The notes under the pieces: model-generated | The model's input: the letters and a program-made list of their open reading frames with translations, nothing else | Told to the model about the DNA's origin: nothing | Database searches by the model: none | Origin: Promethearchaeia archaeon | GTDB taxonomy: Archaea > Asgardarchaeota > Lokiarchaeia > Sigyniarchaeales > SOKP01 | Direction of reading: 5' to 3' | Assembly: GCA_029856105.1 (NCBI GenBank) | Contig: JAHQWH010000015.1 | Location: forward strand, 96,001-160,000 | Length of the DNA: 64,000 nt | In this document: positions 650 through 58,938 of the stretch, one piece after another | Layout of the letters: each line of letters begins with the position of its first letter | How positions within the stretch are numbered: position 1 is the stretch's first letter | Position numbers and translations under genes: made by a program

Positions 650-1963
650 TTATTTTAAAAAGCCATATGAGTTGAACCCGTCTATTTCATAAATTTTAAT
701 TTTAACAAATTTCCCAAAATCTCCTGTATAATCCTCTACAAACACATTTTTATAAGCGATATTTCTACCAAAAGCTTGATTTGGTTTAAGTCCTTCATGC
801 AATACTAAAATTTCCCCTTCCCAATTTTGCCATTTTTCGTTTATTGTAATCAAGGATTCCCTGAAAATTTTTGATAGTCTAATTGAACGTTCCTTGATTA
901 CTCTGCTATTAACTTGTTCCATATCCTTTGCTTTTGTTCCTGGTCGTGGAGTAAATTTTGAAATGTTGAGAATTTCGGGTTTTAGCCATTTAATTAAATT
1001 TATAGTTTGATTAAAATCTTCTTCGGACTCTCCCGGGAAACCACATATTATATCCGTCGAGATGGTCATGTAAGAAAATTCTTTCCTCAAAATTTTTAGC
1101 TTTTCTGCTATATCTGAAATTAGGTAAGGACGGTTCATTTTTTTGAGAACAGCATCGCTTCCAGATTGAATGGGGATATGTAAAAATTGGTACACTTTAT
1201 CAAGTTTGAAAATAGAAATTAATTGATCAAAATTATCAACAATAAACTTTGGATTTAGCATTCCAATTCTTAAGAAGAACTTGTAATCCAAATACACAAT
1301 GTCTCGAACTAAATCGACTAATCTCGTGTTATTATATATATAAGTACTACAATCCTGAGATGTTAAGTATATTTGCTTAATTCCTTGTTTTAACTGATGT
1401 TTTACATTCTCTACAATATTTATCGGATCATAACAGTTTAATCGACCCCTAGCGTTTTTAACGCAGCAATAAGTACAAGAACCTAAACATCCCTCCGAAA
1501 TTGGCACAATTCCAGTAATTTTTTCTTTAGGGTGTTCGATTAAAAATGTTGATTTGTCAATCGAACTTTTGGACTTAAAAACGAGATTATTTTTTCCAGA
1601 TTTGATATCTTGAAAAATTAAAGGAAGGTCGTTTAAATTATCTAAACCAATAATAGCAGAAAAGTTTGGGATTATTTTTTTGACCACATCAATATAATTG
1701 GGTTCTATATGTGGTAAACAACCCGCGATGATGAAATATTTATTTGATTCTTTTTTGTAAGTGTTATACAATTCTTTCAGACGAGATTTTATTTTATTTT
1801 CGGTTTGTTGCTTTACGGCACATGTATTAATTATTACGAATTCAGCGCCTTCAAGCGTTGTTTCAGTGTATCCCGATTTAAATAAAAGGTTAGAAATAAT
1901 GTTGGAATCCGCCTTATTTGACGTACATCCGTAAGTTTCTATGTAAAATAAATTCTTTTCCAT
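650..1963 (-). CDS. tRNA methylthiotransferase, radical SAM (MtaB/CDKAL1/MiaB-like)
   Basis: N-terminal UPF0004 domain (TYGCTSN, INTCAVK, AGCL), CxxxCxxC (CLGSCTYC), HIPIQSGSD, DIICGFPGE, C-terminal TRAM-like domain. Confidence 0.92.
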   Translation of the reverse strand: MEKNLFYIETYGCTSNKADSNIISNLLFKSGYTETTLEGAEFVIINTCAVKQQTENKIKSRLKELYNTYKKESNKYFIIAGCLPHIEPNYIDVVKKIIPNFSAIIGLDNLNDLPLIFQDIKSGKNNLVFKSKSSIDKSTFLIEHPKEKITGIVPISEGCLGSCTYCCVKNARGRLNCYDPINIVENVKHQLKQGIKQIYLTSQDCSTYIYNNTRLVDLVRDIVYLDYKFFLRIGMLNPKFIVDNFDQLISIFKLDKVYQFLHIPIQSGSDAVLKKMNRPYLISDIAEKLKILRKEFSYMTISTDIICGFPGESEEDFNQTINLIKWLKPEILNISKFTPRPGTKAKDMEQVNSRVIKERSIRLSKIFRESLITINEKWQNWEGEILVLHEGLKPNQAFGRNIAYKNVFVEDYTGDFGKFVKIKIYEIDGFNSYGFLK

Positions 1964-53007: not shown

Positions 53008-53670
53008 ATGAATAACATTGAAGACGAATATCATAAAATAATTGAATTTTATCCTAATGCAATTATTGAGAAAGAGTGTATTTCTCAAGTAAAAATTCCA
53101 TTAAAAAATAAATTCTTTTTGAAAATCAACTTTAAAAATTACCCAAAAAAACCAAGTATTAATTTAATTAGTGAAGATGACCGCATTTATCGAAAAGTTG
53201 ACAAAATTATCCCCTTATTAAATAGATGGGAAAAAAAAAATCCTCCTTCTATCGTTGATCTCATTAATGAAATTTTAGCTTTCATTAATAGTTTGGAATC
53301 TAAAGAAATAAAAATTAGAAAAGAATTACTAAATGGAATTATCGCGTTATGTAAAAATCAACATCCGAGAGAAATATTAGGACTTCTAAGAATCATTAAT
53401 GGAATCGCGATAGAATATATTTTACCTCCAGGAGCAATTACATCTAAGAGTTCTGGGCTTTTTGTTCCTAGTAGATTGGGTTTTGATTCAACTCTCAATG
53501 GATCTATTCATTCACATCCTTCTGGAAATCCTAACCCTTCAATTGTTGATATTAATAATGTTTTTAAGACAAAAAAATTCAATTTTATTGTCGCTTATCC
53601 GTATAATTTGAGCAGTATAAAATGCTTTAATAATCAAGGACGAGAGATTGAGTTCAGAATACTAAATTAA
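53008..53670 (+). CDS. UBC/UEV-like domain fused to JAB1/MPN+ (JAMM) metalloprotease
   Basis: C-half REILG...HSHPSGNPNPSIVD (complete JAMM motif); N-half INFKNYPKKP...LNRW...SIVDLINEI. Confidence 0.75.
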   Translation: MNNIEDEYHKIIEFYPNAIIEKECISQVKIPLKNKFFLKINFKNYPKKPSINLISEDDRIYRKVDKIIPLLNRWEKKNPPSIVDLINEILAFINSLESKEIKIRKELLNGIIALCKNQHPREILGLLRIINGIAIEYILPPGAITSKSSGLFVPSRLGFDSTLNGSIHSHPSGNPNPSIVDINNVFKTKKFNFIVAYPYNLSSIKCFNNQGREIEFRILN

Positions 53671-53825
53671 AAAAATATTCATTTATGTAAATAATTGGTA
53701 AATTAGAATAATTTTTAATCGCAAAATTGCTTCTATAAAATAATAACTTGTAATTGTTAATTAACAATTATAGAAGTTAAAATATGATTGTAGTTGTTTT
53801 TAATACATAAAGTTTGGTGAATTGT

Positions 53826-55667
53826 ATGGAAGAGAAACAGAATAGTTTAAACATTAATCCTTTTCGCTTTAAAGATGTTCCTCTAAGAGATTCTAAATAT
53901 CTGGAATATGAAAAAAGTTCTCAATATCTTACTATGAGAGATGGTGTGAAGATCGCCATCGAATTAGTTTTACCGAAAAATTTATCTCCAGAAGATAAGA
54001 TTTCCATTATTTTATTGCAAACACGATATTGGAGAAATTATACGTTTAGAATACCGTTTAGATGGTTCATGAAAGAAGTTGCTGATACAAAAAGAATGCA
54101 TCAAATGGGAACAAGTCGCGGTTATGGATTTGTGTACGTTGATGTGCGGGGTACAGGAGCTTCGTTTGGTTCTAGACCTTACCCCTGGTTCGACGAAGAA
54201 GTGAAGGACGGTCGAGAAATTATTGATTGGATCGTTAGTCAGCAGTGGTCCAATGGAAATATTGTTACAATGGGGGGATCGTATTTGGGCGGAACAGCGG
54301 AGTATGTAGCGACCTTAAATCATCCTGCTGTGAAAGGAATATCTCCTTTTAGTAATCAATGGGATAATTACACAGAAGTAGCATACCCAGGTGGGGCGTA
54401 TAACCATTTTTTTATTAGAATGTGGGGATTATTGGGTAGAGCATTAGACATGAATAATAGTAGAAAATTCCTCAGCATTTTACCATTAATGTTTTTTCTT
54501 GTTAAAGGCGTTAAACCTGTCGATTCAGATAAAGAAAAGCTCCTTTTAAAGGAAGCTATAAAACAACATTCTTCGAATTTATATGTATTTGAAAATGAGG
54601 ATGTTGTCGTCTATCGAGACGATCATTTAATTAAGCAAAAGGAGGATACAGTTGACACAGTTAGCGTTTGCATGAAAAAAGATCAAATAGAAGAATCGAA
54701 TGTCCCATTTTTTTGTTTGGCAGGATGGTTTGACGGCGCAGCTTCAGATAATATAATTAACCGATTTATGACCTATAAGAACCCAATGAGAGCAGTTATT
54801 GGTGATTGGGATCACGGAGCTAATCGAAGGGCAAACCCTTATTTTCATAAAGACTATAAAGTTATTCCAGAAAAAGAATCGCAACAGAATGCGTGGCTCG
54901 ATTTTTTTGACTTATGCATTTACGGAAAACAGCCATTCTCAGAAAAAGCTCTTTATTATTATACTATGGGAGAGGAAAAATGGAAGACGACAGAAATTTG
55001 GCCTCCACTTGGCCAATCCATGCAAAGATGGTATTTTTCAGATAATAATTCAATGTCTCTGTCTAAACCTCAAAATGAAGAAGGAGAAGATAAATATAGC
55101 GTTGATTTTGAGATGACTTCAGGAAAGGGAAATCGTTGGCATACTCATTATGCACAAAAAATGTTTTACGATAAAAGAGAGAAAGTTGACCAAAAATTAT
55201 TGATATATGATAGTCCACCTATAGAAAAAGATACGGAGATCACGGGATATCCAATTATCACCCTTTATTTAGCATCTACTCACGAAGATGGGGTGATCTT
55301 TGTTTATTTAGAGGATTTGGACGAAAATGGAAAAGTGATGTTTGTTACTGACGGTGAACTGCGCTTTATTCATCGTAAAGTTTCTTCAGAGGAGCCTCCG
55401 TATAAAATCATGGTGCCATATCATTCCTTCAAGCGCAAAGATTCGCTCCCTCTTATACCTAGTGAAGTTGCGGAAATAACTTTTGGACTCTTACCAACTT
55501 CTGTATTAATCCGCAAAGGTCACAAACTCAGGATTGTTATTGCAGGTGCAGATAAAGATACATTTAGGCGTTACCCTGACGAAGGCACGCCTACTATAAC
55601 AATTAAAAGAGAGAACGCTCACGCATCATTTATTGACATTCCCGTTATTGCAAATGAAAACAAATAA
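53826..55667 (+). CDS. CocE/NonD family hydrolase (Xaa-Pro dipeptidyl-peptidase-like)
   Basis: MRDGVKIA, DVRGTGASFG, GGSYLG nucleophile, GWFD, GDWDH. Confidence 0.92.
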   Translation: MEEKQNSLNINPFRFKDVPLRDSKYLEYEKSSQYLTMRDGVKIAIELVLPKNLSPEDKISIILLQTRYWRNYTFRIPFRWFMKEVADTKRMHQMGTSRGYGFVYVDVRGTGASFGSRPYPWFDEEVKDGREIIDWIVSQQWSNGNIVTMGGSYLGGTAEYVATLNHPAVKGISPFSNQWDNYTEVAYPGGAYNHFFIRMWGLLGRALDMNNSRKFLSILPLMFFLVKGVKPVDSDKEKLLLKEAIKQHSSNLYVFENEDVVVYRDDHLIKQKEDTVDTVSVCMKKDQIEESNVPFFCLAGWFDGAASDNIINRFMTYKNPMRAVIGDWDHGANRRANPYFHKDYKVIPEKESQQNAWLDFFDLCIYGKQPFSEKALYYYTMGEEKWKTTEIWPPLGQSMQRWYFSDNNSMSLSKPQNEEGEDKYSVDFEMTSGKGNRWHTHYAQKMFYDKREKVDQKLLIYDSPPIEKDTEITGYPIITLYLASTHEDGVIFVYLEDLDENGKVMFVTDGELRFIHRKVSSEEPPYKIMVPYHSFKRKDSLPLIPSEVAEITFGLLPTSVLIRKGHKLRIVIAGADKDTFRRYPDEGTPTITIKRENAHASFIDIPVIANENK

Positions 55668-56430: not shown

Positions 56431-56577
56431 TCTATTTTTTTTTTTAGAGCGATCTTTTGTTTAATAAAAAAATACTTTTTAAACCAATATTTATTGTATT
56501 TATATTAGTGTTTTTAAATTATTTATTTTAAAAAGCATCGATATTAGTAAAGCATAAAGCGCTTGAAGGAATCTAAA

Positions 56578-58938
56578 ATGAATGAGCGAATAAAAAAACT
56601 ACGAACACAAAGTCGTAGAGCAATTCCGTATCTTTCATTGGAGCGTGCTTTATTAATAACAGAATTTTATAAGAATGGAGCAGCTCATAAATATTCTGCT
56701 CCAGTTGCTAGAGCTAAAGCATTTGAATATATCCTAAAAAATAAGGAAATTTGTTTTAATGACAATGAGCTTATTGTTGGAGAACGCGGTCCGGAGCCAA
56801 AAGCGACTCCTTCTTACCCAGAAGTTTGCTGTCATACGCTAAATGATTTAGAGATATTAGATTCTCGTGAAAAAATATCTTTTAAAGTGCAAGACGAAGT
56901 GTGGCGAAAATCTAAAGATATCGTCATTCCATTTTGGAAAGGAAAAACAATCAGAGAGAAGATCTTTTCTCAAGTCGACCAAGAGTGGATAGATGCCTAT
57001 TCAGCGGGGATTTACACAGAGTTCATGGAACAGAGAGCTCCTGGACATACTGTAGCTGGAAAGAATATTTGGAACATGGGCTTTATGGATTTTAAAAAAC
57101 GAATTCAAATTTCAATCGAGAACTTAGATTTTTACAACGATCCTGATGCGTTTGCTAAAAGAGAGCAATTAAAGGCCATGGATATAGCAGCTAATAGTAT
57201 AATAGCCTATGCTAAGAGACATACTAAAAAGGCTTTAAAATTAGCCGAAAACGAATCTGATCCAATTAAAAAAAAAGAATTAGAAAAAATCGCTGAGATT
57301 TGTTCTCGCGTTCCAGCTCAAGCTCCAAAAACTTTCTGGGAAGCTTTGCAGCATTACTGGTTCATTCATTTAGGCGTTATTACAGAATATAATACCTGGG
57401 ATGCCTTTAATCCCGGACGGCTTGATCAACATTTATACTCTTTTTACAAGAAAGATATATCTGATGGCATTTTGACAAAAGAAGGAGCCGTCGAACTACT
57501 CCAAGCTTTTTGGATTAAATTTAACAACCAACCAGCACCTCCAAAAGTGGGAGTAACTGCCGAAGAAAGCGGTACTTATACAGATTTTTGCAATATTAAT
57601 CTAGGAGGGTTAAAAGAAGATGGTTCTAACGGAGTAAATGAACTTTCTTACGTACTTTTAGATGTAATTGAAGATCTGAGAATACTACAGCCTAGTAGTA
57701 ATGTTCAAATAAGTGAAAAAACTCCAGACGATTTTATTAGAAGAGCCCTTAAGATTATTAAAACAGGTTTTGGTCAACCCTCGGTTTTTAATGCAGACGC
57801 CATTATCCAAGAACTTACGCACCAAGGAAAATCGTTAGTAGATGCTCGAAACGGTGGTGCGAGTGGATGCGTTGAAACGGGAGCTTTTGGAAAAGAAGCA
57901 TACATATTAACAGGATACTTTAATCTTGTGAAAATTCTTGAAGTTACTTTACATAATGGAAATGATCCTTTAACGAGTAAACAAGTTGGATTAAAGACGG
58001 GAGACGCTACCTCTTTTAGAACTTTTGATGAGTTATTAGAAGCGTATACAAAACAAATTAAGCATTTTGTTGACATTAAAATAAAAGGTAATCTAATAAT
58101 AGAGCGGATTTGGGCGCAAAATCCTTCCCCATTTTTATCAATTATTATTGACGATTGCATCATAAATGGAAAAGATTATAACGATGGCGGAGCAAAATAC
58201 AATACATCCTATATTCAAATTGTTGGCATGGGAAGTATAACTGACTGCTTAACCTCTCTAAAATATAATATCTATGACAATAATATTTATACTATGGAGC
58301 AGATGCTCGAAGTGCTTAAAAAAAACTTCGAAGGTTTTGAGGAAATAAGACAAAAACTGATTTATAGAACGCCTAAATATGGGAATGATAAAGATTACGC
58401 CGATCTTATCACCCAACAAATTTTCGAGATTGTTTATAATGCCATTGATGGTCGTCCAAATACTAGAGGAGGAGTCCATAGAATAAATCTACTTCCTACG
58501 ACTGTCCACATCTATTTTGGAATGGTAACTGGTGCCACGCCAGATGGTAGAAAGGCGTTTACACCTTTATCTGAAGGAATTTCCCCAGTCCAAGGGATGG
58601 ATATTAATGGTCCAACCTCAGTAATAAAGTCCGCTGGCAAAATTGACCATCTTCGAACTGGAGGGTCTTTATTAAATCAAAAATTTTCTCCCAAATTCTT
58701 TTCAAGTGAATCAGGAATTAATAATATAGCCCATCTGATACGCTCTTATTTTAAAATGGGGGGTCATCATATTCAGTTTAACGTAGTCTCGGCAAATACC
58801 TTGCGTGCTGCTCAAGAAGATCCAATAAAATATCGTAATCTAATTGTACGCGTTGCTGGTTATAGCGATTATTATATAAACTTAGGAAAAGATTTACAGG
58901 AAGAGATTATTAGAAGAACAGAACATTTTTCTATTTAG
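56578..58938 (+). CDS. hypD: Glycyl radical enzyme, trans-4-hydroxy-L-proline dehydratase
   Basis: TEFMEQRAPGHT, WDAFNPGRLDQHL, KFNNQPAPPKVG, TYTDF, SGCVE, RVAGY. Confidence 0.88.
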   Translation: MNERIKKLRTQSRRAIPYLSLERALLITEFYKNGAAHKYSAPVARAKAFEYILKNKEICFNDNELIVGERGPEPKATPSYPEVCCHTLNDLEILDSREKISFKVQDEVWRKSKDIVIPFWKGKTIREKIFSQVDQEWIDAYSAGIYTEFMEQRAPGHTVAGKNIWNMGFMDFKKRIQISIENLDFYNDPDAFAKREQLKAMDIAANSIIAYAKRHTKKALKLAENESDPIKKKELEKIAEICSRVPAQAPKTFWEALQHYWFIHLGVITEYNTWDAFNPGRLDQHLYSFYKKDISDGILTKEGAVELLQAFWIKFNNQPAPPKVGVTAEESGTYTDFCNINLGGLKEDGSNGVNELSYVLLDVIEDLRILQPSSNVQISEKTPDDFIRRALKIIKTGFGQPSVFNADAIIQELTHQGKSLVDARNGGASGCVETGAFGKEAYILTGYFNLVKILEVTLHNGNDPLTSKQVGLKTGDATSFRTFDELLEAYTKQIKHFVDIKIKGNLIIERIWAQNPSPFLSIIIDDCIINGKDYNDGGAKYNTSYIQIVGMGSITDCLTSLKYNIYDNNIYTMEQMLEVLKKNFEGFEEIRQKLIYRTPKYGNDKDYADLITQQIFEIVYNAIDGRPNTRGGVHRINLLPTTVHIYFGMVTGATPDGRKAFTPLSEGISPVQGMDINGPTSVIKSAGKIDHLRTGGSLLNQKFSPKFFSSESGINNIAHLIRSYFKMGGHHIQFNVVSANTLRAAQEDPIKYRNLIVRVAGYSDYYINLGKDLQEEIIRRTEHFSI

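Follow-up and report, generated by a model that had tools for sequence, protein, structure and literature searches.

One open reading frame with an ATG start encodes a 220-amino-acid (aa) protein, P0001, on the plus strand of the window, by which we mean the whole 64,000-nucleotide stretch of DNA that was analyzed. No overlapping open reading frame of 50 aa or more was found on either strand over the interval that it occupies (Table 1). An aconitase gene ends 44 bp upstream and the gene of an S15/CocE-type peptidase begins 143 bp downstream, both on the same strand. The latter, an X-Pro dipeptidyl peptidase gene by Pfam (window positions 53814 to 55667), and a 791-aa open reading frame farther downstream (56563 to 58938) are not conserved beside homologs of P0001.

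P0001 is a real two-domain gene. Its full-length homologs, at E values from 1e-132 to 1e-33, place the fusion far beyond chance. In an AF2 model of the full-length protein (pLDDT 84, pTM 0.60), the linker is short and a helix of the N-terminal domain (N-domain) leads into the first strand of the JAMM domain. The mutual orientation of the two modeled domains is uncertain because the pTM is 0.60 for the full length and 0.80 for the N-domain alone.

Table 1. Features of the P0001 gene, with positions in the window
Feature	Position	Strand	Basis
Whole gene, predicted UBC fold (UEV/RWD-like) plus JAMM/MPN+	53008..53670	+	Open reading frame list, translation, 220-aa full-length homologs, AF2 model
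N-terminal domain, aa 1-100, predicted Cys-less UBC-superfamily fold	53008..53307	+	AF2, VIA-align, ESM-Atlas, N-domain profile
YPKKP, aa 45-49, turn between strands 3 and 4	53140..53154	+	Conservation in 31 homologs
W74, invariant Trp ahead of the long crossover-like helix	53227..53229	+	Both homolog alignments (A1, A2)
C-terminal JAMM/MPN+ domain, aa 100-220, minimal AfJAMM type	53305..53667	+	phmmer, Foldseek, Pfam Prok-JAB
E122, JAMM catalytic glutamate	53371..53373	+	Aligned to AfJAMM E22; kept in all MPN+ members, replaced in MPN- paralogs
H168-S-H170-PSGNPNP-S178-IV-D181, JAMM zinc-binding core	53509..53550	+	Direct reading; aligned to AfJAMM HSHPS...PSeeD

The C-terminal JAMM domain

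In its C-terminal half, P0001 carries an intact MPN+ domain, which is of the minimal archaeal type and is not an ortholog of Rpn11 or AMSH. The complete E...HxH-x7-S-x2-D motif that the original prediction had read there is present as written. When all PDB chains were searched with phmmer, the sole match was AfJAMM (AF2198; PDB 1oi0 and 1r5x; E 4e-15 over residues 100 to 219), with E122, H168, H170, S178, and D181 of P0001 in register with E22, H67, H69, S77, and D80. These five residues are kept in all fused MPN+ and stand-alone relatives. Membership of the JAMM/MPN+ (Prok-JAB/AfJAMM) family is borne out by motif, model, and fold: Pfam Prok-JAB (PF14464) scores 26.5 bits on residues 95 to 220 (cut-off, 25) and 24.5 bits on the whole protein, and Foldseek with the full-length model ranks AfJAMM first (1oi0/1r5x; E 1e-9; TM by target, 0.86 to 0.89), with Rpn11, CSN5, BRCC36, PfJAMM1, and a Caldiarchaeum Rpn11 homolog at least 4 orders of magnitude weaker. 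The NCBIfam desampylase model reaches P0001 at an E value of only 0.049, and P0001 is therefore not an ortholog of the haloarchaeal desampylase.

The N-terminal domain

Pfam and NCBIfam returned only noise on residues 1 to 100, and a profile search of PDB sequences with the N-domain found nothing significant. Across 31 family members scanned, no match to Pfam UEV (PF05743), RWD (PF05773), or UQ_con (PF00179) appeared at E values up to 1; the best Pfam match was a weak one to BRE (E 0.012, in 2 members). Because sequence methods failed, residues 1 to 100 were folded separately. With a 31-sequence alignment, AF2 gave a model (pLDDT 88.5, pTM 0.80) whose topology is a helix, a beta-meander, a short helix, and a long helix, the modeled elements being helices at residues 4 to 14 and 82 to 99 and strands at 24 to 31, 36 to 41, 50 to 55, and 60 to 63.

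The pattern read in the sequence consists of YPKKP, W74, and the helix PPSIVDLINEILAFI. The original prediction had described an N-terminal stretch of ~95 aa with YPxKP, a Trp, and an SIVDLINEI helix and with neither an HPN motif nor a catalytic Cys, and this description holds. Among 31 homologs, which diverge to 29% identity in the N-domain, Y45, P46, K47, and W74 are invariant and P49 is at least 90% conserved; YPKKP corresponds to the YPxxPP turn of E2s and the YPxxxP turn of RWD domains. HPN is absent from all 31 N-domain homologs aligned, and Cys occurs in one alignment column only, within strand 1, in 5 of the 31, and is not conserved. The N-domain is therefore not a thioester-forming E2 but belongs rather to the UEV/RWD class, and it likewise gives no match to UQ_con, the model for catalytic E2s.

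With VIA-align, an exhaustive search over 48,161 PDB representatives, every one of the best 50 matches has the UBC fold (Z 6.4 to 9.7; root mean square deviation, 2.6 to 4.8 Å; 83 to 98 residues), as the original prediction of a UBC/UEV/RWD fold would have it. They are led by the UEV-like domain of VPS37A (Z 9.7), a Plasmodium E2 (Z 9.2), and the UEVs of Vps23 and TSG101 (Z 8.7) and include the BRE UEV in BRISC (6h3c_C; Z 7.6), the RWD domains of GCN2, RWDD1, and RNF25 (Z 7.0 to 7.5), FANCL (Z 6.9), and bacterial Bil, Bub, and CBASS E2s (Z 6.5 to 6.7; 8tyz_C, 9eav_D, and 8hsb_B among the bacterial structures). The tool warns that a Z of 7 to 8 is possible by chance, and our call of a UBC fold rests on the uniformity of the match list and on alignments that span 83 to 98 of the 100 residues.

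Two further, independent lines point to the same fold. A shape search of the ESM-Atlas returned, in order, the protein's own family, a 540-aa Promethearchaeota cluster (Pfam UQ_con plus RWD; TM 0.77), and fungal RWD/Yih1. An N-domain hidden Markov model run against 1.8 billion representatives found 75 proteins, many with two to four tandem copies, which adjoin regions called UQ_con, RWD, UBC_like, BRE, FANCL_d1, and RING by Pfam. Foldseek, which the original prediction had named as a check, was weak: the top match to the N-domain model was a bacterial E2 (8tz0_C) at an E value of 0.13, and nothing was found at E ≤0.001. An hhalign comparison of the N-domain profile with 17 Asgard E2s put helix 1 through YP in register and YPKKP on YPFAPP at a probability of 5% and was set aside as evidence of homology.

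Both the fold topology of the UBC superfamily and its YPxxP turn with a Trp ahead of the crossover helix are found in the N-domain, and the modeling supports a Cys-less UBC-superfamily fold of UEV/RWD type rather than an E2. UEV, E2, and RWD matches rank within 1 to 2 Z units of one another, and the fold and sequence data are too coarse to tell a UEV from an RWD domain.

Distribution and origin of the fusion

A word-indexed search yielded 71 clusters, nearly all of 218 to 225 aa and aligning end to end, down to 34% identity; an exhaustive search added divergent fused forms of 213 to 245 aa with intact motifs (for example, P0084, P0094, P0100, P0109, P0112, and P0119). Where homologs are named by their sources, all are Asgard (Lokiarchaeota, Hermodarchaeota, or Promethearchaeota). 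At the level of sequence, these alignments demonstrate a fusion conserved under deep divergence. The fused form is present in at least 12 genomes. Among 151 genomes of the phylum, the full-length fusion was found only in the window's family (genera g1, g3, and g6), plus a single genome from a sister family of the same order, and four other Asgard families have a stand-alone JAMM only, of about 125 to 165 aa, matching positions 96 to 220. In a maximum-likelihood tree of the JAMM domain, the fused proteins all group in one clade, apart from the stand-alone Asgard JAMMs (SH-aLRT 100). The simplest history is that a UBC-fold domain was joined once to an AfJAMM-like gene, within Lokiarchaeia-type Asgards.

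Related domains also occur in larger proteins. In one distant metagenomic relative (P0135, 481 aa), a zf-AN1 finger and TPR repeats precede the UEV-like domain, and the JAMM that follows is intact (HSH...S..D at residue 397). In eukaryotes, zf-AN1 is a finger associated with ubiquitin and the proteasome, and its presence here may, by association, be a weak hint of such a link. Separately, Asgard proteins of about 350 to 690 aa (P0079 to P0083, P0087 to P0092, and P0128; loci L052 and L053; genomes G129 and G147) contain, in tandem, two to four Cys-less domains of UBC/RWD-like type that are relatives of the P0001 N-domain, often together with a UQ_con-like domain at the N terminus and a Pfam RWD domain at the C terminus. 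Two of them, P0079 and P0083, show weak zf-RING_2 matches below threshold (E 0.0045 and 0.0089; 17.7 and 16.7 bits, where the cut-off is 27.3). We found no description of these tandem proteins, which recall FANCL, BRE, or RNF25.

A catalytically dead paralog

A paralog of the same two-domain layout lies on the same contig about 65 kb upstream of the start of the window (L002:1501-2169, corresponding to G000:C19:31272-31937). The 222-aa protein keeps YPKK and the Trp and has lost all five JAMM residues: K stands in place of E, ISR in place of HSH, and neither the S nor the D remains. Pfam no longer recognizes a JAB domain in it. This dead MPN- protein of like layout is a new observation here; neither it nor the narrow lineage distribution had been noted in the original prediction. 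In the maximum-likelihood JAMM tree, the MPN- forms fall together on one long stem (SH-aLRT 100) within the clade of fused proteins, and the form arose once, inside that clade.

An active and a paralogous inactive MPN member thus occur in one genome, and the pairing recurs in G071, G083, and G113. In the genome sample, MPN- forms were found in four genomes of the window's genus, all four of which encode an MPN+ protein from the window's subclade as well, and none of the 151 sampled genomes has an MPN- form by itself. The co-occurrence is suggestive only, because the four genomes are close kin. Eukaryotic JAMM enzymes typically act as MPN+/MPN- heterodimers (Rpn11-Rpn8, CSN5-CSN6, and BRCC36-Abraxas), and it is therefore plausible that P0001 and its dead paralog pair; by this analogy, the two probably work as an MPN+/MPN- pair in the window's genus. 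The paralog gene is flanked by hypE and hypD, and a hypF-like acylphosphatase gene begins downstream. Adjacency to hypD recurs in close relatives (L022 to L024) and not around the more distant P0070.

Gene context and the ubiquitin system of the genome

In eleven loci (L015 to L024 and L088 to L091) from nine homologs, no neighbor recurs across lineages, and the contexts read contain no ubiquitin, E1, E2, or ESCRT gene beside P0001 or its homologs. An aconitase gene adjoins P0001; elsewhere the neighbors are TatD, MTHFR, Arf-family GTPases and thiolase, PHO4, or a metallophosphatase. Since gene neighbors are not conserved, the functional reading rests on the domains.

The statement that Asgard archaea encode ubiquitin components is borne out in the same genome, where a ubiquitin-E1-E2-JAB operon lies on contig C18. 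A second, divergent E2-E1-JAB cluster (C85:5614-7469; loci L007 and L011), whose E2 matches the UQ_con core only, at 38 bits, may be a bacterial-type ubiquitin-like protein (Ubl) conjugation operon in an Asgard genome. There are also a third E2, further E1-like genes, and four ThiS/MoaD-like matches. Seven Prok-JAB matches were counted, of which six are other than P0001; two of the six lie inside conjugation operons and are more obvious deubiquitinases than P0001. Two open reading frames matching Pfam ubiquitin, on contigs C12 and C18, end in ...AGG-S and ...STAG-YF (L003, about 1450 to 1704, plus strand; L004, 1474 to 1803, minus strand), that is, past the Gly, so both appear to need C-terminal trimming. 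The C18 frame, within the operon, has a 40-aa N-terminal extension. Pfam UEV had no match in this genome, a null that is uninformative because control genomes gave none either.

Proposed function and alternatives

Read from its domains, P0001 is probably a ubiquitin/Ubl isopeptidase with a built-in ubiquitin- or partner-binding module. The C-terminal half, a minimal AfJAMM-type zinc metalloprotease predicted to be competent, would remove ubiquitin-like proteins from conjugates or trim C-terminal extensions. The N-domain would be a noncatalytic targeting module that either binds ubiquitin or a Ubl noncovalently or docks the protease onto a partner in the conjugation machinery, supplying the substrate recognition that minimal JAMM domains are missing. 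In the more specific form that we lean toward by a little, the JAMM domain would hydrolyze isopeptide or precursor bonds of ubiquitin or a Ubl, and recognition would come from the N-domain, which would bind ubiquitin or the Ubl itself. This form matches the reader-eraser fusion of the original prediction, whose structural part is supported and whose functional part is plausible. It is favored by the ubiquitin, SAMP-like proteins, E1s, and E2s that the genome also encodes. Against it count the minimal AfJAMM type of the protease, the gene neighborhoods, the other Prok-JAB genes, and the fit of the modeled N-domain to RWD and E2 folds about as well as to UEVs; we also know of no activity of AfJAMM itself.

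The same isopeptidase could instead carry an RWD-type adaptor or dimerization module that does not read ubiquitin, with an E2 or E3, the proteasome or Cdc48, the ribosome, or the MPN- paralog as candidate partners, a possibility to which we give a minority share of our confidence. RWD domains usually bind proteins other than ubiquitin, and the top structural matches include GCN2, RWDD1, RNF25, Yih1, FANCL, and BRE (Z 6.8 to 7.6); named RWD proteins are the ESM-Atlas neighbors, and the nearest sequence relatives of the N-domain are repeats in multi-UBC/RWD proteins, some of them RING bearing. The MPN- paralog keeps the N-domain, whose role would therefore be independent of catalysis in cis, and by analogy, BRISC is scaffolded by the UEVs of BRE, and GCN2 or FANCL is docked through RWD domains. 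However, the three UEVs that score highest (Z 8.7 to 9.7) are ubiquitin-binding or ESCRT-I domains, although their margin over E2s and RWDs is 1 to 2 Z, and the gene context points to no partner. A role outside protein conjugation altogether, in which the N-domain is a structural appendage and the JAMM domain processes some other peptide or a beta-grasp adduct of sulfur-carrier or biosynthetic type, strikes us as improbable. Prokaryotic minimal JAMMs do include adduct-processing enzymes such as Mec+/CysO and QbsD (Iyer, Burroughs and Aravind 2006, PMC1779556), ThiS/MoaD-like genes are present in the genome, metabolic genes (aconitase, MTHFR, and thiolase) neighbor the fusion in the window and in relatives, and the MPN- paralog lies among hyp genes. 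Yet the neighbors differ in every lineage, so that none is a conserved partner; UBC-fold domains are otherwise tied to ubiquitin/Ubl systems, and the fusion is restricted to a lineage rich in eukaryote-like ubiquitin components.

That the fusion is an annotation or assembly artifact, or the N-terminal similarity a product of chance, has a negligible probability and is excluded: the frame of ~220 aa is uninterrupted in at least 12 genomes and in about 70 clusters that come from independent metagenomes and metagenome-assembled genomes, a short linker joins the N-domain helix to the first JAMM strand, and all of the best 50 structural matches share one fold. A defense-system reading (CBASS or Bil) was also rejected: P0001 has no E1 and no Cys, and PADLOC gave only weak partial matches to generic JAB models.

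An extension of the isopeptidase reading, which we regard as unlikely, is that this Asgard lineage independently built a BRISC-like MPN+/MPN- heterodimer with a UEV-like, ubiquitin-binding domain on each subunit. If so, two ubiquitin-binding sites would flank one active site and could confer selectivity for chain type or chain length, and the protein would be a prokaryotic, self-contained reader plus eraser of a kind otherwise known only from multisubunit eukaryotic complexes.

Comparison with known systems

The C-terminal 120 aa of P0001 are the same minimal MPN+ domain as in AfJAMM (about 30% identical), HvJAMM1, and PfJAMM1 (5ld9 and 5lda). Those enzymes are stand-alone proteins of about 125 to 135 aa, whereas P0001 adds the predicted N-terminal UBC-fold domain. 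HvJAMM1 and PfJAMM1 cleave SAMP conjugates. The Rpn11-like JAMM of Asgard and Caldiarchaeum ubiquitin operons (6fju and 6fnn) is likewise an MPN+ protein in an archaeon with eukaryote-like ubiquitin, but its Foldseek E value to P0001 is 2.5e-4, compared with 1e-9 for AfJAMM, and P0001 lies outside the ubiquitin operon, whose own JAB is on C18.

For residues 1 to 100, the best structural matches are ESCRT-I UEVs (Vps23/TSG101 and the VPS37A UEVL), aligned over 91 to 95 residues, and UEVs, Mms2/Uev1 included, share with the N-domain a UBC fold that lacks the catalytic Cys and HPN. Unlike UEVs, the N-domain is short (about 100 aa) and without the extra N-terminal helix and the C-terminal helices; unlike Vps23, it has no attached Vps23 core or steadiness box and no significant Pfam UEV match.

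The nearest eukaryotic precedent is BRISC/BRCA1-A, which holds the same three ingredients as separate subunits: an active JAMM (BRCC36), an MPN- protein (Abraxas/KIAA0157), and Cys-less UBC-fold modules (the tandem UEVs of BRE). In BRISC, however, the UEVs are on a separate subunit and the MPN domains have coiled coils, whereas in the P0001 family, each MPN domain has a predicted UBC-fold domain of its own fused to it. The JAMM domain of P0001 groups with AfJAMM and not with BRCC36, so the likeness to BRISC is one of convergent architecture rather than orthology.

The nearest architectural precedent is bacterial, namely, the E2-E1-JAB triple-module proteins, described together with E1/E2/JAB operons, and the RWD-like Cys-less E2-fold proteins that occur in JAB/E1 operons (Iyer, Burroughs and Aravind 2006, PMC1779556). 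Like P0001, bacterial E2-E1-JAB, CBASS Cap2/Cap3, and Bil/Bub systems combine a UBC fold and a JAB in one polypeptide or operon. P0001 differs in having no E1 (ThiF) domain, no adjacent E1 or Ubl gene, and no Cys, with the UBC-fold domain followed directly by the JAB and the nearest ThiF matches on other contigs; it is also archaeal, with no sign of a mobile defense island.

Novelty and significance

Our literature searches, in which subscription journals are thinly covered so that absence is not proof, found no published direct fusion of a UEV, UBC, or RWD domain to a JAMM in Asgard archaea, and recent studies of the evolution of Asgard ESCRT and ubiquitin systems do not mention one. To our knowledge, a UEV-JAMM architecture is not known from eukaryotes either; the original prediction had called it unfamiliar from that domain of life, in agreement with general knowledge and with these searches. 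As far as we could find, a JAMM with a built-in UBC-fold module and a derived MPN- partner is previously undescribed.

In eukaryotic JAMM deubiquitinases, specificity is conferred by partner subunits, Rpn8, Abraxas/BRE, and STAM among them, and minimal archaeal JAMMs have no obvious means of substrate choice; in P0001, a predicted recognition fold of the ubiquitin system is fused directly to the protease. Because P0001 is small (220 aa) and soluble looking, it should be tractable for studying the origin of specificity modules and of MPN+/MPN- pairing. The work also points to a broader expansion of Cys-less UBC/RWD-like domains among Asgards, in tandem or with RING, zinc ribbons, or zf-AN1. P0001 bears on archaea that are related to eukaryotes and extends the list of domain combinations in the Asgard ubiquitin system.
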